Origin: a virus
Reading direction: 5' to 3' (one strand)
Length of the DNA stretch: 64,000 nt
Virus record (IMG/VR): IMGVR_UViG_3300031578_000001
A program made the position numbers and the translations under genes. Below the pieces are notes generated by a model. The model was not told the origin of the DNA. It searched no databases and was given only the letters and a program-made list of their open reading frames with translations. Positions 9,522 through 54,356 of this stretch are shown here, piece after piece; the stretch's first letter is position 1, and the number at the start of each line of letters is the position of its first letter.

Positions 9522-9626
9522 TAGCGGGGGCAGGAATCGAACCTGCGACCTCCGGTGATTACACCAATAGGTTCCCGTGGGTTCCAAAGGCGAGTGCCGG
9601 TGTGCCTACCACTGCACCACCCCGCA
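9522..9626 (-). tRNA. tRNA-like gene (initiator-tRNA-like acceptor stem) with ~32-nt insert in the anticodon arm; anticodon unresolved
   Basis: GCGGGG/CCCCGC acceptor; GTGC/GCAC D-stem; AGGTC variable loop; GCAGG-TTCGATT-CCTGC T-arm; ends A-TCA. Confidence 0.7.
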
Positions 9627-40778: not shown

Positions 40779-41435
40779 ATGTCTTTGATGGTCCAGGTCA
40801 GGAGGAACGGAATCCCGGTTCCGGGCCTCTTCATGAAGCGGGGCACCGAAGGTGACGTCTTTCGGTTCGTTGGAGCCGAGACGGGCCATGCTCAGATCAT
40901 CAGGATCCAGGACAATACGGTTCTTCCGGATGGGAGGAACAGGGTCACGGTAGGTCCGAATCACACAGCCCCTAACAACACGCCCCAGTACATAGACTTC
41001 GTCCTGGGGTTCAGGTACTTTGTGGGTCTTCACCAGCTGGACGTGGGCGTTGTGGGACTTCCCAGAGGAACCGTACAGCCCATTGTCGCGAGAGAGGTCA
41101 TAGACAGGGCGAGACAGGACTGGGCTGGTTGGGCGAACCCTCCGTACAACTTGGAGCTCGATCCGGATGGGGTGTTCGTCACCTATTTCCAGGAGACGGC
41201 CCCGGACGTGGTTCGTGTCGTGAACCCGTGGCGGGCTGCCATCTTCATATTCTCCGTTCCTCATACTTCTCTTCAGACCGTGTCCAAGAACCGGATCACG
41301 GTCGAGAACCAAGGGGACAACAGGGCCATCGAACTCCTGGGAGAGAACGACGGCATCGTATTCAAAGCGCCCAACGGGCTCAGGGGTCTTCTCAGGATCG
41401 ACAACAATCTCCATCTGGGGGTAGATCCGGTCTGA
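40779..41435 (+). CDS. tail-associated structural protein
   Basis: 218 aa; AGGAGG SD. Confidence 0.6.
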   Translation: MSLMVQVRRNGIPVPGLFMKRGTEGDVFRFVGAETGHAQIIRIQDNTVLPDGRNRVTVGPNHTAPNNTPQYIDFVLGFRYFVGLHQLDVGVVGLPRGTVQPIVAREVIDRARQDWAGWANPPYNLELDPDGVFVTYFQETAPDVVRVVNPWRAAIFIFSVPHTSLQTVSKNRITVENQGDNRAIELLGENDGIVFKAPNGLRGLLRIDNNLHLGVDPV

Positions 41436-42430
41436 TGCGTTATACTGACGTCTATAACACGGTGAACCTTGTGCGAAATGGAGGGCTCGACTTCCTCAAG
41501 TCCCTCAATGAAATCCCTCCGTTCTGGAAGATGCAGGGAGCGGAGCCCAATGCAATCCCTCCCGTGAATTCATTCAGTATCGTAACGGGGCATGTTCCGG
41601 AATCGGAGAATGGGGCTGCGCGGTACTTCAGGTTCGTCCTGTCCTCGTCATCGCCCGTCATCCTCCAGCAGGAGTTTATCGACATCAATCCCCAGATGAC
41701 GTTCTGTCCGATGGGGTCCTATCCATGGCAGACGTATGGGGACCGTCTCAGCAACGATAGGTATCCCATTTACGAATACACCCTGATCAGAGGCATCGAA
41801 ATCTCGATCGCTGCGAGCATCCGCGTGGTAAAGGGCAGTGCGAAGATCAGCCTGTCCAACAGGTTCAAGGCGGCCAATGAGGAAGAGATAGAGGTCTACG
41901 CAGCCCTGGCATCGAAGGACTGGGTCAGGCCTTCGACCGTGGTGGATCTCAGGGGTCGGATGTTGAAGACGCTCGGCATCAAGATGGAGCGTATCGGAAT
42001 GGGCGACGTGGCCGAGATCCATGTGGGCGCGGTGACCATGATCACGGGATCCACGTCGGATGTGCCCTACGTTGGTGATCCGATGGCAGACGCAATTCCG
42101 AAGGGAGCCATCGTGTTCATGTTCGGAGATGCGTGTCCTCCCGGATTCGATCTCGTGGAACTTCCTGCGCCGGCCAAGCACGGGAGGATCTTTCCGAGGG
42201 AGGGAGCTCCATCTCTTGATGTTGGTGGGGATGAGACGCACGTTCACGACACGGCAGAGATGGTCATGAGTCCGGAAGATGGATGGCTCACCCTTGATTT
42301 GATCCCGACACCCTTCGGCCAGAACTATGGGACGCCGGCCGACAGTGGAGAGGACGTCCATACCCATGATATGGGCAGTGGTGATCATGTTCCGCCGTCG
42401 AAAGACGTTATTCTCTGTAAGAGACTCTAA
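41435..42430 (+). CDS. receptor-binding/tail-collar protein, paralog 1
   Basis: TGATG-coupled start; NLVRNGG; IPKGAIVFMFGDACPPGF collar motif; HxH repeats; ends VILCKRL. Confidence 0.65.
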   Translation: MRYTDVYNTVNLVRNGGLDFLKSLNEIPPFWKMQGAEPNAIPPVNSFSIVTGHVPESENGAARYFRFVLSSSSPVILQQEFIDINPQMTFCPMGSYPWQTYGDRLSNDRYPIYEYTLIRGIEISIAASIRVVKGSAKISLSNRFKAANEEEIEVYAALASKDWVRPSTVVDLRGRMLKTLGIKMERIGMGDVAEIHVGAVTMITGSTSDVPYVGDPMADAIPKGAIVFMFGDACPPGFDLVELPAPAKHGRIFPREGAPSLDVGGDETHVHDTAEMVMSPEDGWLTLDLIPTPFGQNYGTPADSGEDVHTHDMGSGDHVPPSKDVILCKRL

Positions 42431-44673
42431 TGACCCAGAAGATCGAGAGCGCGTTTTCCAGGGTGGCGAACGGGAACTTCTCCCATGGTACCGCGTACTG
42501 GGAGTCCGTGCTCGCTGGCGATCTGCGTATCCGTACATCAGGGGGCGAGAGCACGGCTCCGAGCCACGAGCTCTATTCAAGATACTGGCTCGAGGCCAGG
42601 GGCCATTTCCAGCACGTCATCCAGTACAAAGATTTTCCTATCTATCCGGCTGCCTCTCGTTTCGACACGGCGGTAGTCCCCGTCGCTCCGAACCTGTACC
42701 TGCTGGCGGCGCAGCCGAATCCCGGAATCGAAGCGATCCGACTTCAGCCGTTCGGAGTCTTCAACCCAGTCGGGCCGCCGATCGCCATGAAGAGAGGATC
42801 GAAGATCCTCGTGGGTTCTCCTTCCGGCGACCACGATCTCGAGACCCGGATCAACAGAGTTCTTAAAGTAACCGAGAAGATCTACAGCCAGACTCCTTAC
42901 CTCACGGAGGTGCTGGTCAATATTTCCGGCTCAGGCATGCCAAAGATCTTCAAGCAGGCGATGAGCAGTTACAAGAGGCCGATCAGCAACAACCTATTCT
43001 CGGTCAGGATAGACAGGACGGCCATAGACAGCGCCATTCGTCCCGACGGAACTGTCGGTGTAAGGGTGGGAGACTACTTCGTGGCCAGGGATCCTCTTTG
43101 TTCCGGCAGGATATCGGGCATTACGGCCACGGAGATCTTCGTTGTCAAGGATACCAGTCTTCACAGGCTCCCTCTTCTGACTGTTTTCGATAAGCCGATC
43201 AGAGACTGGTACATCGTCCCGGGATATAACACGACCATGTTCCGGGAAGGCGAGTTCATCCAATACGATCTGACGCTGGCCTTCGACGTCGCCGGAATAA
43301 ATAACATCTACAGTGTTTTCATCAAGTTCTACGACGAAATATATTCGGGTACTAACGGCGCCCTGTTCCCCGTGAGAGTCAATCCTGGAGAGTCGATTCC
43401 TAAATTCTGGTATGAGAAACAGATTGGAAACGTCAAAAGGTTTTTCATGCGATTCTTCGGGGAGTACGAGGCTCCGATCATCCACGATAAAGCTGTGATC
43501 GAGTTCACTCAGATCTTTGACAATGCGGAGACTCTCGTCGGAAACGTGGTTCTTCTCCGTGGAAACTACATAGACCGGCTCAAGAAGGAAGACACCAGTC
43601 CCACGGCCGAGGTGGTCGATCTTCTCGAGTCACCGATCAACGTGGAATCGAACATCATTCCCAAGGGTACGATTTTCGCCTACGTGGGAGGATCCGTGTG
43701 TCCTCCAGGATATGAAAGAGCCGAGGGCGTGGGCCGGTTCGAAGCCGGGTCCTTGAAGGATCTTGATGGTCTCAGACTCGACTTCGGTGAAGGACCTGGA
43801 TGGTATGGGACCTCGGCTATCCACTGGGACAGAGGCGGGGATCTCGTCAACGGGACCTTTCGTGACCCAACGCATCTGAGGCCCATGACGATCTTTGGCA
43901 TCAACGAATTTGGTCGAGAGAGCGTCGGAAAGTCCTATCCATATCAGGTATCTTCCAGATACGTACCTGTTACTCCTTTCCGGTATACCACCGGATCCAA
44001 CGCGAATCTCCTGGCCTACAGAGATGGGATCGGAGGGGATCCGAGCCCGATTCTCGTGACGGAGGAGTATCTGAGGACGGACGTGGTTCCGGGCGACATT
44101 GTCGAATTCTACAACGAATCGAAACACTACTCGGTGTGCGCTCTCATCGTCCAAGTGGTCGCTGGGGAGTTTGTCACGCACATCCAGGAAGGAGTGCCTC
44201 CCGACATCTTCAACGGTGATCCGGACCTATATCGTGCGAGGCGGCAAGTAGGGGCCGGTATCCCGAGGAACTCGGTGTACCAGGGATACGGAATGTTCGG
44301 GCCGTTCGCCTTCATCCGCGAGCCTCAGACTTTCGTGGAACTCTACGGCGACTTCCAAGAGGTTATCATCAATGCGGCTATCGATCACGCGAAGATGAGG
44401 ATCTGGAAGAGCGGTACGATCGCGCATGCCCAGAGGATCCCCGAGGCTCAGATTACCGGACCTCTCGGAGGCTACGGCTACTTCGGAGAGCCCCATACCC
44501 ACGTCATGAAGCAGAGCCATGACATCTCCACCTATGGTGACGTGGGGCACTCGAGTCAGGGAGCATTCATCACGACTCCTCTCAAGATTCCGTATACTCA
44601 CACGCATAGATCCTTGTTCGGAGCCGTTACGATTCCGAGGATTCGTCCCGTGCTCCTCTGTCAGAAGATCTGA
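42430..44673 (+). CDS. receptor-binding/tail-collar protein, paralog 2
   Basis: VANGNFSH; IPKGTIFAYVGGSVCPPGY; HTH motifs; ends VLLCQKI. Confidence 0.7.
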   Translation: MTQKIESAFSRVANGNFSHGTAYWESVLAGDLRIRTSGGESTAPSHELYSRYWLEARGHFQHVIQYKDFPIYPAASRFDTAVVPVAPNLYLLAAQPNPGIEAIRLQPFGVFNPVGPPIAMKRGSKILVGSPSGDHDLETRINRVLKVTEKIYSQTPYLTEVLVNISGSGMPKIFKQAMSSYKRPISNNLFSVRIDRTAIDSAIRPDGTVGVRVGDYFVARDPLCSGRISGITATEIFVVKDTSLHRLPLLTVFDKPIRDWYIVPGYNTTMFREGEFIQYDLTLAFDVAGINNIYSVFIKFYDEIYSGTNGALFPVRVNPGESIPKFWYEKQIGNVKRFFMRFFGEYEAPIIHDKAVIEFTQIFDNAETLVGNVVLLRGNYIDRLKKEDTSPTAEVVDLLESPINVESNIIPKGTIFAYVGGSVCPPGYERAEGVGRFEAGSLKDLDGLRLDFGEGPGWYGTSAIHWDRGGDLVNGTFRDPTHLRPMTIFGINEFGRESVGKSYPYQVSSRYVPVTPFRYTTGSNANLLAYRDGIGGDPSPILVTEEYLRTDVVPGDIVEFYNESKHYSVCALIVQVVAGEFVTHIQEGVPPDIFNGDPDLYRARRQVGAGIPRNSVYQGYGMFGPFAFIREPQTFVELYGDFQEVIINAAIDHAKMRIWKSGTIAHAQRIPEAQITGPLGGYGYFGEPHTHVMKQSHDISTYGDVGHSSQGAFITTPLKIPYTHTHRSLFGAVTIPRIRPVLLCQKI

Positions 44674-45902
44674 TGGCAACGAACGACTACACACGACTGG
44701 CGCTCAGGCCCATGGCCATCAACCGGTTGAAGAACGGTAACTTCAACCGTACGCCCCGGCAGCATACTATCACCGACAATTACAATGTGTCGGCCTACGC
44801 CACGGCTGGGATCACGCGCACGTTCCGTACCAGATACAAGTACGACTCCCAGATGGTCATCGATGGTGCGACGTTGCAGAATCGCGTTACGATCCCAGGA
44901 TTCCATGTCCTTGCGCAGAAACCCGCCGAGACCTTCATCTCTGATTGGTTCGTATGGGGAGCGGAGGGAGTCATCAGCTTCGACGAGCGTGGTAGATCCA
45001 TGGACGACGGAGCGAGAGCCGATCTCGAGTTTCTCGCGCCAGGAGATGTCACGTTCCTTCAGTCGATCGAGAGCTTCGATAAGTTCAGGGGCAAGCCCGT
45101 GACCCTCGCCGTCTCAGGTTACCAGAGGAACCGGAACGTGAAGGTCCAGTTCGTGATCGACTGCGGATCCAAGGTGATCGAAGGACGTCCCTTCCATTCC
45201 AGATACTTCGGTCCGTACACCAGGATGATTGACGTCTTTGAGTCGATTCCCCTGGACATTTCGAAGTTCGAGGTCATGCTCAAGATGACCGGAGGCCAGG
45301 GCGGTTCGGTAGGCTTGTCCGGGATCATGATGGCCATAGGAGCCTACGCTTCGGACCTCCCTTATTCGGATAACCCATCCGACGTGGCAGTTCCGAGCGG
45401 GGCCGTGATTCTCTGGCTCGGAGACACGTGACCTCCAGGCTACCGCCCCCTCGTAGAGGATGGCACGTCACTTCACGCGTTCATCGGGGATCCCAACGCT
45501 TTCTTTGGCAACACTGGGTACAGCCAGATGCGCGGCATTCCCACGGCGATCTATAATCTGAGGCCGGATTTTCCTCCTTCTGGTTCGCGAAATCTCGAGG
45601 TGGGGAGCAACGAGCATAGTCACGAGTCCGGTAACAGGTGGGAGATTCAACCCTCCGGTCTCAAGGAGGAGACGGACAGGTTCAAGACGCCTATCATCGC
45701 TGACAAGCAGGTCCCTATGAGGGAAGTGGCTGCTGCCGCGGCCCAAGGAGATCCACCGGATCCGAATGCCACCAATCCGGTTCCGCCCTACGAGGGACTG
45801 ATTTCGGAAGCGTTGCCCATAGAACATGCGCACGAGATCAAGCTGGGTCAGGAAGACATTCAGATCCCGTACGTCAAGGTCAGGATATGCGAGAAGATCT
45901 AA
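44673..45902 (+). CDS. receptor-binding/tail-collar protein, paralog 3, with an in-frame TGA at codon 253 (45429-45431)
   Basis: LKNGNFN; VPSGAVILWLGDT*PPGY; the frame continues to HSH/HAH motifs and ends VRICEKI, like its paralogs. Confidence 0.7.
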
Positions 45903-46339
45903 TACCGAGGAAGGATCAGAATCCGATCCTATTGTATTCGCCCACATGTCCTTACTGCGGTAAGACACTCGAACCTGTGATCGAATTTTTCCTATCGAGA
46001 GGTATACTTCTAATAGTCCGGCGCCCAATGAAGGAGGAGATCGACAGGATCCCAGGATATCCGGCTCTCTACATTCCGAAGGCGTACTCGGAGCCGATCA
46101 TCCTCTTTGGTACCGGTATTGTAGAGACACTCGAGAAGCTTCCTGAGTTGGCGAATTATTATGGACCCTCTCTCCATCATTACGAAGAACATTCCGATCG
46201 CGCTGGTGGCCCAGGCATACAGCGAGCAACTCCAAGCGGTGGGAGGAGTACCGCCGTACACGTGGAGCTTGGACTCAGGAGCGTTACCATCGGGGGTGTC
46301 ACTATCGCCCAGCGGGATCCTGGATGCTGCGGCGGGTAA
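45887..46339 (+). CDS. glutaredoxin/thioredoxin-like protein (CPYC)
   Basis: ILLYSPTCPYC...IPGYPALYI (cis-Pro motif). The C-terminal tail overlaps the next gene by ~180 nt. Confidence 0.5.
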   Translation: MREDLIPRKDQNPILLYSPTCPYCGKTLEPVIEFFLSRGILLIVRRPMKEEIDRIPGYPALYIPKAYSEPIILFGTGIVETLEKLPELANYYGPSLHHYEEHSDRAGGPGIQRATPSGGRSTAVHVELGLRSVTIGGVTIAQRDPGCCGG

Positions 46340-49129: not shown

Positions 49130-49303
49130 ATGAGGGAGAAGTGCTGTGCTTGTGATGAGATCGCCGAGGGCGAATACAGGGATCTCGACGACTCCGTCTT
49201 CTCCGAGGCCATCCGCACCTTGATAAAAGACCCGGACGCCAAGCGCGTCTTCATCTGTGACCAATGCTCGGGCGGATCCAACATGCCCGTGCACATGCCG
49301 TAG
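49130..49303 (+). CDS. small Zn-finger protein
   Basis: CCAC...CDQC; GAGG SD. Confidence 0.55.
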   Translation: MREKCCACDEIAEGEYRDLDDSVFSEAIRTLIKDPDAKRVFICDQCSGGSNMPVHMP

Positions 49304-49311
49304 GAGGTACG

Positions 49312-49671
49312 ATGCCTTTCAAGTCCGATGCTCAGAGACGCTGGATGTACGCCACTCACCCCAAGATGGCGAAGAGATGGCAGAAGGAGACTCCGAAGGG
49401 CAAGGATCTCCCCGAGAAGGTGGCAGCGGCCTTCGTCGACGAGCTGAACAAGATCTCAGCGGCACAGGCGTTCAAACCGAGCCCTGGCCCGAAGAAGCCG
49501 GATCCGTTCAAGTCCTTCGCATCTAAGGCGCCGAGGCCGGTCCATGTTGCCGGGGTCAGGGACGCCAGTGGGAAAGGTATCGGTATCGGCTATAGCATGC
49601 AGAGCTCACCGAAGCCTTTGAAGGTCCCGGCGGGGTACGAGCAGCTCCTACGGAGAGCACCGAAGTTCTGA
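49312..49671 (+). CDS. small basic protein (MPFKS.AQRR.M type) with AFVDELNKIS motif
   Basis: AGGAGG SD; N-terminus recognisable as a common phage small-protein family. Confidence 0.7.
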   Translation: MPFKSDAQRRWMYATHPKMAKRWQKETPKGKDLPEKVAAAFVDELNKISAAQAFKPSPGPKKPDPFKSFASKAPRPVHVAGVRDASGKGIGIGYSMQSSPKPLKVPAGYEQLLRRAPKF

Positions 49672-49680
49672 GGAGGAGAA

Positions 49681-49929
49681 ATGAGAAGTCTGATTGCCAC
49701 TGCCTTCGTCGACGAGCTGAGCAAGATCGCAAATGGGCTCGAGAAGGGTTCCCTCGGCAGGATGATGAGAGGCCCGAAGCACACTTATCTTAGGCCCCAG
49801 TACGCAGAGGAGATCCGGGAGCAGAGGAGGAGTCCGGAGATGAGGGGCCGAGGCAGCCGGTCCCATGAGTGGCTCAACAACGCCCGGGTGGTTGAAAGGG
49901 ATATGCGGATCAGAAGAGCCTCCAGATGA
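49681..49929 (+). CDS. small basic protein with AFVDELSKIA motif
   Basis: GAGGAG SD. Confidence 0.7.
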   Translation: MRSLIATAFVDELSKIANGLEKGSLGRMMRGPKHTYLRPQYAEEIREQRRSPEMRGRGSRSHEWLNNARVVERDMRIRRASR

Positions 49930-49989
49930 GCAAGATGGGCCACATCTCAGGGAAGAACTACGCAAGAGCGATGTAGAAAGAAGACGACC

Positions 49990-50229
49990 ATGAACGACAG
50001 GATCGCGCAGTCATTCATCGACGAGCTGAACAAGATCGCCATGGGCTACGACCCTGCGAGACAGCCTCACGAACTCAATCTTCAGCGCATGGCAGCGAAG
50101 TCAGGCGGAGGAATATCGTTCATACGAGGCGGTAAGAGTTACGGTACCCCAACCTCGATGCCGACGAATGTTCTGAAGAGCGTATCCAAGAACATCGGAG
50201 CAGGAAAGTTCAAGGTTGTGCCTCATTAG
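49990..50229 (+). CDS. small basic protein with SFIDELNKIA motif
   Basis: 79 aa. Confidence 0.7.
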   Translation: MNDRIAQSFIDELNKIAMGYDPARQPHELNLQRMAAKSGGGISFIRGGKSYGTPTSMPTNVLKSVSKNIGAGKFKVVPH

Positions 50230-54233: not shown

Positions 54234-54356
54234 TGGCGCGGGCCGGATTCGAACCGGCTTAGGCTTCCCGTAAGGAGTAGGTAAGTCGGGGTACTCCTTG
54301 CCGCGAAACCCACCACTCCCCACCTACGTGGGCACGTCCCACCGTGCCACCGCGCC
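54234..54356 (-). tRNA. tRNA-like gene with an extended, insert-containing anticodon arm and a long variable arm; anticodon unresolved
   Basis: GGCGCGG/CCGCGCC acceptor; GCAC/GTGC D-stem; GCCGG-TTCGAAT-CCGGC T-arm; ends A-TCA. Confidence 0.65.

Follow-up and report, generated by a model that had tools for sequence, protein, structure and literature searches.

The sequence data show that positions 44673-45902 of the viral DNA analysed here, a stretch of 64,000 nucleotides that we call the window, read as one gene for a predicted single 409-residue protein of the tail-fibre type, whose full-length synthesis would require site-specific recoding of a UGA codon. The gene and its parts are as follows.

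44673-45902, plus strand: the recoded gene, of tail-fibre type, with 252 codons, TGA as codon 253, 156 further codons and TAA
44673-45428, plus strand: codons 1-252, a predicted N-terminal CBM4/9-like beta-sandwich and the conserved segment before the TGA
45162-45164, plus strand: the codon of Cys164, a cysteine exclusive to the stop-bearing lineages
45429-45431, plus strand: TGA codon 253, at the near-invariant Cys position of a G-x-x-C-P-x-G-Y/F motif
45432-45902, plus strand: codons 254-409 and TAA, a C-terminal module with two HxH motifs and the terminal Cys406

The open reading frame at 44673-45431 encodes 252 amino acids and terminates with the TGA at 45429-45431, after which the unchanged frame stays open for 156 codons until the TAA at 45900-45902, as a first-pass annotation of this DNA had reported. 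The annotation had also placed the TGA at a cysteine shared by two paralogs, and this observation is confirmed, codon 253 aligning with the Cys of CPPGF in one paralog and of CPPGY in the other.

41435-42430, plus strand: paralog 1 (331 aa), containing CPPGF, whose Cys codon is the TGT at 42134, and ending in LCKRL
42430-44673, plus strand: paralog 2 (747 aa), containing CPPGY, whose Cys codon is the TGT at 43699, and ending in LCQKI

The common terminus that had been described likewise holds, as all three paralogous proteins finish with HxH...C-x-K-I/L. The TGA that terminates paralog 2 overlaps the start codon (ATG) of the recoded gene, and the two-paralog synteny is kept in L005. The HxH motifs of the C-terminal module are His315/317 and His385/387, of which His315, His385 and His387 are invariant or nearly so in the family, and the codon of Cys406 lies at 45888-45890. 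Thr252, the last residue before the TGA, is invariant within the stop-bearing clade.

The most confident part of the structural model is the N-terminal region, which is predicted to be a CBM4/9-like beta-sandwich of the phage tail-fibre kind, in a gene that sits in the tail module. AF2 pLDDT exceeds 90 across most of residues 70-260; Foldseek gives a probability of 1.0 to CBM4, CBM22, CBM29, CBM61 and many BFVD tail fibres; and the atlas features of the 252-residue product lead to viral clusters with CBM_4_9. Monomer modelling yielded no fold for the C-terminal module. The label of tail-collar protein given in the first-pass annotation survives as a weak motif-level likeness: over 26 residues, the profile matches the collar motif of the solved tail fibre PDB 9qgo (E 0.25). 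It does not extend to a Pfam assignment, since Collar (PF07484) is absent and no Pfam family matched the recoded protein or either paralog at E up to 0.1. A PHROG search gave no match.

The 252-residue product is recorded on three contigs, for which the source collections listed are JGI, Logan and ENA. A metagenome contig with 85% protein identity, L001, carries the same TGA at its positions 381-383, so that close homologs do not all have a TGC or TGT codon at this site. The proteins P0003, P0012 and P0104 end at the same alignment column as the 252-residue product of the window, and with them two further lineages, at about 54% identity, stop exactly before codon 253. The TGA itself was read at the DNA level in the window and L001, and the ends of P0012 and P0104 are known from protein sequences. 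Since five related sequences from four lineages terminate at exactly this codon, the coincidence is far beyond chance. P0104 is paired with a conserved downstream ORF, P0071, which probably lies on the contig that encodes P0104. The best tree places its stop-bearing sequences (n = 4) in one clade, with weak support. No match was found in the GenBank phage collection; IMG/VR scans, run with the family alignment and again with P0071, and a scan of GTDB genomes were likewise negative. A sequencing or assembly error, or a mutation private to this virus, would also put a TGA at a cysteine codon; with the product on three contigs and three source collections listed for it, the same TGA in the diverged L001 and two more lineages truncated at the same codon, the probability of such an origin is negligible.

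Between the window and L001, omega is 0.044 upstream of the TGA and 0.065 downstream, where 78 of the 114 differences fall at third codon positions. The first 30 codons past the TGA contain 10 synonymous and no non-synonymous changes. The 31 codons that follow the TGA contain no ATG, GTG or TTG, and the first Met is not the same in the two sequences. These results bear on a reading of the TGA as a true stop, which would leave either two separate proteins, the second with an independent downstream start, or a decaying remnant downstream. Gene callers do annotate two ORFs (P0002 with P0014; P0104 with P0071), yet the start-free codons directly after the TGA are those in which every change is synonymous, and a remnant is hard to reconcile with the low downstream omega. 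In the C-terminal domain, P0071 and the window are 39% identical, on a par with the mean of 40% for similarly diverged Cys-bearing pairs; constraint is thus unrelaxed even in the distant stop lineage. We therefore consider a true stop very improbable. A recent nonsense change switching off one fibre is contradicted by the same omega and unrelaxed C-terminal domain, and by the persistence of the stop down to 54% identity. Four diverged lineages have retained the stop, and the codons immediately beyond it are translated and under selection. Read-through thus appears necessary, and we conclude from these comparisons that ribosomes very probably read through the UGA at codon 253.

Other candidates were tried and rejected. 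A frameshift is excluded, as both halves share one frame. Ribosome hopping from an ACG to a downstream ACG would skip codons that are under selection, and the landing codon differs in L001. DGR-type mutagenesis is not supported, because the L001 differences fall mostly at third positions, are mostly synonymous and do not lie in one variable patch.

TGA ends 14 of the 30 long genes in the window and is their commonest terminator; among these genes is paralog 2, which is also TGA-ended in L001. Genuine TGA-C terminators are present elsewhere in the window. The earlier claim that TGA is a normal stop outside this site, and that the event is site-specific, is thus borne out, and the recoding is probably local and directed in cis. 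A scan for further genes split by a single TGA gave no convincing second case in the 64-kb window. Use of TGA as a genome-wide sense codon was rejected, given the number of genes that it terminates, the single interrupted gene in the window and a negative ARAGORN search for tRNAs. A trans-acting suppressor, phage-made or phage-induced (for example, an unusual tRNA), could instead read UGA late in infection and act as a timing lock on late genes. The window does contain two odd tRNA-like genes in which inserts replace the anticodon arm.

9522-9626: tRNA-like RNA 1 (Rfam tRNA, 46.7 bits)
54234-54356: tRNA-like RNA 2

However, ARAGORN finds no tRNA, and neither tRNA-like RNA has a UCA anticodon loop. 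A general suppressor would also read through the 14 TGA-ended genes, whereas codon 253 is the sole in-frame TGA interrupting a gene in the window. We consider a suppressor improbable.

Of the 66 aligned family members, 62 have cysteine in the codon-253 column, as do both paralogs; the remaining members have Val or Ala, and Trp never occurs. Residues 253 and 406 co-vary (Fisher p 7e-6), with 61 members carrying Cys at both positions, four losing both (Val/Ala with Leu/Ile/Val) and one having Cys with Gly. Cys406 is retained in every stop lineage with a known C-terminus. Cys253 looks like a buried pairing partner. Given the co-variation of Cys253 with Cys406 and the retention of Cys406 by the stop clade, the residue inserted at the UGA should be Cys-like rather than Trp. 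A UGA on a family cysteine with Cys homologs is, at the level of the alignment, the classic signature of a Sec/Cys pair. Residue 164 is Cys in the window, P0003, P0012 and P0104, and Thr, Ser or Val in 16 of 16 close relatives that carry Cys253.

The first-pass annotation had drawn attention to a glutaredoxin-like gene immediately downstream, and this gene is present.

45887-46339, plus strand: a glutaredoxin-like ORF with a thioredoxin fold and a CPYC motif, overlapping the 3' end of the fibre gene

Its sequence matches in the PDB are weak (thioltransferase and glutaredoxins, E 0.04-0.1). An association specific to the TGA did not hold up, because a version with CPFC adjoins the Cys-bearing fibre ortholog in L005.

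The best explanation, to which we give about an even chance, is that selenocysteine (Sec) is inserted at codon 253 by host SelB and tRNA-Sec, guided by the first of two hairpins that follow the TGA.

45445-45464, plus strand: hairpin H1, with 3 bp, a one-base bulge, 4 bp and the apical loop GUA at 45453-45455, a candidate SECIS or read-through stimulator
45477-45499, plus strand: hairpin H2, in which a C-to-U change in L001 preserves a G-U pair; not significant against shuffles

Host SelB and tRNA-Sec would deliver selenocysteine to UGA 253, and H1, which starts 13 nt downstream, is placed as a bacterial SECIS would be and has the minimum of its features, would guide the insertion. Sec253 would then substitute for the near-invariant Cys253 and pair with Cys406, a selenylsulfide replacing the disulfide. 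Ribosomes that fail to recode would release the 252-residue product, which is mostly the sandwich domain. We hold at somewhat less than even the fuller picture of a phage virion selenoprotein with a Sec253-Cys406 selenylsulfide, perhaps acting with Cys164 and the glutaredoxin-like protein, in which this UGA would be one of at least two hairpin-guided sites and late proteins would depend on the host Sec machinery. Sec decoding is confined to a minority of bacteria. Most known Sec residues are catalytic, and the apparently buried, pairing character of the codon-253 cysteine disfavours the Sec reading, as does the number of copies that a virion protein needs, which exceeds what Sec insertion usually supplies. 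In the 64-kb window, the part of the 182-kb genome that was searched, there is no SelA, SelB or SelD domain and no tRNA-Sec.

Bacterial SECIS elements, by consensus, have a loop of 3-9 nt with G in its first two positions, an upper stem of at least 4 bp, a distance of 16-37 nt from the UGA and a minimum free energy of -7.5 or lower (PMC13188914). H1 starts 13 nt past the TGA and has a predicted energy of -8.3 kcal/mol (z about -2). Its 3-nt loop beginning with GU, 4-bp upper stem, 21-nt spacing and energy place it minimally within the consensus, which 15.6% of random window positions also satisfy. In L001, H1 is identical save one unpaired base, its conservation being judged on the two DNA sequences that span the site, the window and L001. 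A borderline hairpin also occurs in the H1 region of three of five Cys-bearing orthologs, and on counting, synonymous-site conservation over H1 is not an outlier. The CTAC/GTAG hairpin that the first-pass annotation had noted after the TGA does exist in the window; it is weakened in the 85%-identical L001, and the hairpin that stays unchanged there is H1. The distance of H2 from the TGA exceeds the consensus range. Longer folds around the site were no better than shuffles, a long helix enclosing the UGA was rejected because two L001 changes break its pairing, and Rfam gave nothing near the TGA site.

The chief rival to selenocysteine is programmed leaky termination, in which a near-cognate tRNA (that for Trp or, rarely, Cys) would compete with RF2 for a weak UGA-C stop. 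The outcome would be a fixed ratio of the short 252-residue protein to scarce full-length protein, setting a stoichiometry or providing two products. UGA-C is the weakest RF2 context, and C follows the stop in both the window and L001. The stop also falls just past the confidently folded sandwich, so that the short product could, on the model, fold alone. A phage precedent for UGA read-through exists in Q-beta A1 (PMC8310308), and the window holds neither Sec machinery nor a convincing SECIS. Furthermore, near-cognate decoding could restore the native residue at few kinds of stop, and a stop that arose from a Cys codon is among them. Bacterial UGA leak, however, is mainly due to tRNA-Trp, and Trp, which would leave the conserved Cys406 unpaired, is never found at a column that holds Cys, Val and Ala only. 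A single TGA-to-TGY change would restore Cys at full yield, yet no stop lineage has reverted. The constraint on the C-terminal domain equals that in Cys-bearing relatives, and the TGA-C context also serves real terminators elsewhere in the window. Weighing these points, we regard leaky termination as possible but unlikely. Selenocysteine and programmed read-through thus survive side by side from the four options first offered for the TGA, and sequencing error and recent nonsense mutation are rejected.

If Sec is inserted, selenium biology would be extended to phage particles, with a rare Sec at a structural pairing position, and phage assembly would be tied to a host trait of some bacteria, a link relevant to host range and to the prediction of hosts. 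If read-through is leaky, a DNA phage would have a new means of controlling how much is made of one fibre among three paralogs. Either way, gene callers split such genes, and the halves are annotated as separate unknown proteins. In the literature that we searched, neither a selenoprotein nor programmed UGA read-through was reported for a tailed-phage structural gene; the viral selenoproteins found there were poxvirus glutathione peroxidases only, and the phage read-through was Q-beta A1 only.

The T4 tail fibres gp12 and gp37 have metal-binding HxH motifs. The present protein resembles HxH/collar tail fibres in the invariant HxH pairs of its C-terminal module, its weak alignment with the 9qgo collar motif and its location in the tail module beside two paralogs; it differs from them in lacking a Pfam Collar match and in having its Cys before, rather than after, the P-x-G-Y/W motif. 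Phages that recode TGA or TAG in their late genes were reportedly described by Borges et al. The present virus resembles them in having a stop codon in frame within a late structural gene. However, stop-reassigned phages contain numerous in-frame stops, avoid using that codon to end genes and carry suppressor tRNAs, whereas the gene described here has one such site, TGA ends more genes in the window than any other stop codon, and the window yielded no suppressor.

As in Q-beta A1, where a leaky UGA ends the coat gene, read-through would give a fraction of a virion protein an additional C-terminal domain. For Q-beta it is immaterial which residue is inserted, and the extension is an add-on, whereas here the UGA replaces a required paired Cys within a module that is continuous in all relatives. 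The gene resembles bacterial selenoprotein genes with a SECIS inside the ORF, of which E. coli fdhF is the prototype, in that its UGA is aligned with the Cys of homologs, coding conservation extends to both sides, and a hairpin with an apical loop starting in GU lies near downstream at an allowed distance. Unlike those genes, it encodes a phage virion-type protein rather than a redox enzyme, its Cys is a co-varying partner rather than a known catalytic residue, and its hairpin barely satisfies the consensus and has weak statistical support. Glutathione peroxidase selenoproteins are encoded by the poxviruses molluscum contagiosum virus and fowlpox virus (PMC8310308). Like them, the gene described here is a viral gene proposed to rely on the host Sec machinery, and the fowlpox SECIS also lies inside the coding region. 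The poxvirus proteins are captured cellular enzymes in viruses of eukaryotes, whereas the present case would be a native phage structural family in which one clade has switched from Cys to UGA.

The open reading frame that starts at 44673 runs for 252 codons to a TGA (45429-45431), after which the same frame is free of stops for 156 codons, up to a TAA at 45900-45902. When the TGA is read through, the 409-residue protein aligned over its full length with two upstream paralogs. This alignment placed the TGA on the cysteine of the paralogs' CPPGF and CPPGY motifs and bore out the first-pass annotation's claim of a common terminus in all three proteins, consisting of HxH and C-x-K-I/L. The elements of this region are:

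41435-42430 (+), paralog 1
42430-44673 (+), paralog 2, ending in a TGA that overlaps the ATG of the next gene
44673-45902 (+), recoded gene, with UGA at codon 253
45445-45464, small hairpin (H1) downstream of the UGA
45887-46339, glutaredoxin-like gene with a CPYC motif

As had been stated, TGA is an ordinary terminator and is not reassigned: it ends 14 of the 30 long genes in the window. Since it is the commonest terminator here, decoding of this UGA must be local.

Comparison with homologs for TGA versus TGC/TGT showed that the stop is shared. The 252-aa product is recorded on three contigs, the longest of 182 kb, with JGI, Logan and ENA as listed sources. L001, a related 1-kb metagenome contig, has TGA at the same codon followed by an open, alignable frame, with 85% protein identity to the window by tblastn and 89% identity over aligned DNA columns; its gene also ends in TGA. 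A sequencing error, which the first-pass annotation had entertained, is contradicted by the three contigs and by the same TGA in the diverged L001. Three related proteins, P0003 (87% identical), P0012 (54%) and P0104 (81% to P0012), each end exactly one residue before codon 253. A separate 120-residue ORF, P0071, matches the C-terminal part of the window protein and has its two HxH motifs and its terminal Cys; P0104 and P0071 probably lie on one and the same contig, the longest for each being 26,375 nt. Among 1.84 billion representative proteins searched, 92 belonged to the family, and of these, contig-end and split fragments aside, only the window's cluster ends at column 253 (window protein numbering). 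A maximum-likelihood analysis of the N-terminal domain grouped the four stop-bearing rows, in its best tree, into one weakly supported clade (69/59), made up of two pairs with long branches between them.

The sequence after the TGA is under selection. Between the window and L001, omega was 0.044 upstream of the TGA and 0.065 downstream, with synonymous sites near saturation, and third positions held 78 of the 114 downstream differences. The first 30 codons past the TGA, which lie ahead of any possible start codon, had accumulated 10 synonymous changes and not one non-synonymous change, and the window and L001 do not share the first in-frame Met. This excludes a second half that is initiated on its own. 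C-terminal identity between the window and P0071 was 39%, at an N-terminal identity of 51%, and Cys-bearing pairs of like N-terminal divergence averaged 40%; the C-terminal domain of the stop-bearing clade is thus conserved no less than elsewhere. Taken together, conservation, selection and the clade show that the stop is old and kept, and that what follows it is made and needed, which does away with the proposal of a recent nonsense change. We are confident that this conserved stop is read through; a split gene, a remnant or an error appears, even jointly, the least probable account.

Of 66 aligned family members, 62 have Cys at column 253 and the other four Val or Ala; at column 406, 61 have Cys. 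The two columns were coupled (Fisher p = 7e-6): 61 rows were C/C, four had lost both Cys to a pair of small hydrophobic residues, and one was C/G. As the rows are related, they represent about two or three independent events. The pattern is that of a disulfide in the protein interior or of a ligand site to which both residues belong. Because the UGA takes the very place of a Cys that is needed and paired, the partner Cys406 is kept in every stop-bearing lineage with a known C-terminus, and no reversion to TGY has occurred over a long divergence, we favour selenocysteine as the candidate inserted residue, with a chance that we judge to be about even. A Sec/Cys pair with conserved flanks is the standard criterion of selenoprotein prediction (PMC13188914).

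The bacterial SECIS (selenocysteine insertion element) consensus calls for a 3-9-nt apical loop that has G in its first two positions, an upper stem 4-16 bp long, a UGA-to-loop distance of 16-37 nt and an MFE <= -7.5 kcal/mol (PMC13188914). H1, with a GUA loop, a 4-bp upper stem and 3 bp below a bulge, a spacing of 21 nt and -8.3 kcal/mol, passed all four rules in our own implementation, as did 15.6% of random window positions. Two DNA sequences cover the site, and H1 in L001 is the same but for one unpaired base. Since that random pass rate is high, three of five Cys-bearing orthologs have a borderline hairpin nearby, several other stretches of unchanged codons in the gene are at least as long as the one over H1, and longer folds were no better than shuffles, support for H1 as a SECIS is weak. 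This counts against selenocysteine, as do a site that looks structural rather than catalytic and the copy number required of a virion protein. The main rival is leaky read-through of UGA-C, by which a short protein with the sandwich domain would be made along with small amounts of the full-length fibre. UGA leak in bacteria usually inserts Trp, and Trp occurred at column 253 in none of the 66 members; we consider this rival possible but rather unlikely. No tRNA was found by ARAGORN within the 64-kb window, nor were SelA, SelB or SelD domains, and we regard it as very unlikely that another trans-acting suppressor reads the UGA.

Two tRNA-like genes, 9522-9626 (-) (46.7 bits to Rfam tRNA, 41-nt insert) and 54234-54356 (-), carry long inserts in place of the anticodon arm; neither has a UCA anticodon loop, and no link to UGA recoding was found. 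At 49264-50229 (+), three small ORFs share one frame, with a single TGA or TAG stop between one and the next. A short helical tag, F-V/I-D-E-L-N/S-K-I, recurs in each of them, and they have the look of individual tagged genes rather than of read-through.

Cys164 (45162-45164), in the sandwich domain, is Cys in all four stop-bearing lineages and Thr, Ser or Val in 16 of 16 close Cys253-bearing relatives; among the 66 aligned members only the window's own row has Cys. It arose together with the UGA and might be a third redox partner. Thr252 (45426-45428), directly before the UGA, is likewise shared by all four lineages and is encoded by ACG in both DNA sequences that cover the site. Cys-bearing relatives differ among themselves at this column (Ala, Ser, Asn, Tyr and others). 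Thr252 may be part of the context that recoding needs. A Shine-Dalgarno-like GGAG (45420-45428; GAGG in L001) lies 5-9 nt ahead of the UGA and may simply reflect the Gly/Glu-Asp codons of the motif.

Our literature searches turned up neither a phage selenoprotein nor a structural gene of a tailed phage with programmed read-through of UGA. In a review of recoding, poxvirus glutathione peroxidases are the sole viral selenoproteins named and Q-beta is the sole phage case of read-through (PMC8310308), and phages are absent from the text of a 2026 review of prokaryotic selenoproteomes.

Neither Pfam nor PHROGs matched the recoded protein or its paralogs. AlphaFold2 with the family alignment predicted a beta-sandwich (pLDDT >90 over most of residues 70-260), modelled residues 270-400 poorly as a monomer, and was confident again for the last strand (403-408). 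Foldseek matched the sandwich to carbohydrate-binding modules (CBM4, CBM22, CBM29, CBM61) and many phage tail fibres, and an atlas search agreed. Against solved structures, the family profile had one match only, 26 residues of the collar motif in the trimeric tail fibre 9qgo (E 0.25). The earlier tail-collar label thus retains a weak motif match but no Pfam match, and we treat it as a lead, not family membership. P0025, P0026, P0029 and others (1,500-2,050 aa, from other metagenomic sequences) have at their C-terminus the same module, made up of sandwich, C-P-x-G-Y, HxH and terminal Cys; because of its presence in such long proteins, we consider it a portable fibre-tip cassette.

In L005, a relative whose ortholog has TGC at the recoded codon, gene order is the same as in the window: a 787-aa protein, a 219-aa protein, paralog 1, paralog 2, the ortholog, the glutaredoxin-like gene and a large Ig-domain protein of ~1,000 aa. 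The CPYC gene that the first-pass annotation placed downstream is present, with weak glutaredoxin and thioltransferase matches, but is not UGA-specific: since it also adjoins Cys-bearing orthologs, it belongs to the fibre module and not to the recoding. The gene (CPFC in L005, 11122-11568) always follows the three Cys-pair fibre paralogs, which suggests a phage-encoded thiol-disulfide helper in fibre folding, an idea similar to the poxvirus cytoplasmic disulfide pathway. His315, His385 and His387 show little or no variation. HxH metal-binding motifs are known from trimeric phage fibres, and the conserved His of the window protein recall those of T4 gp12 and gp37.
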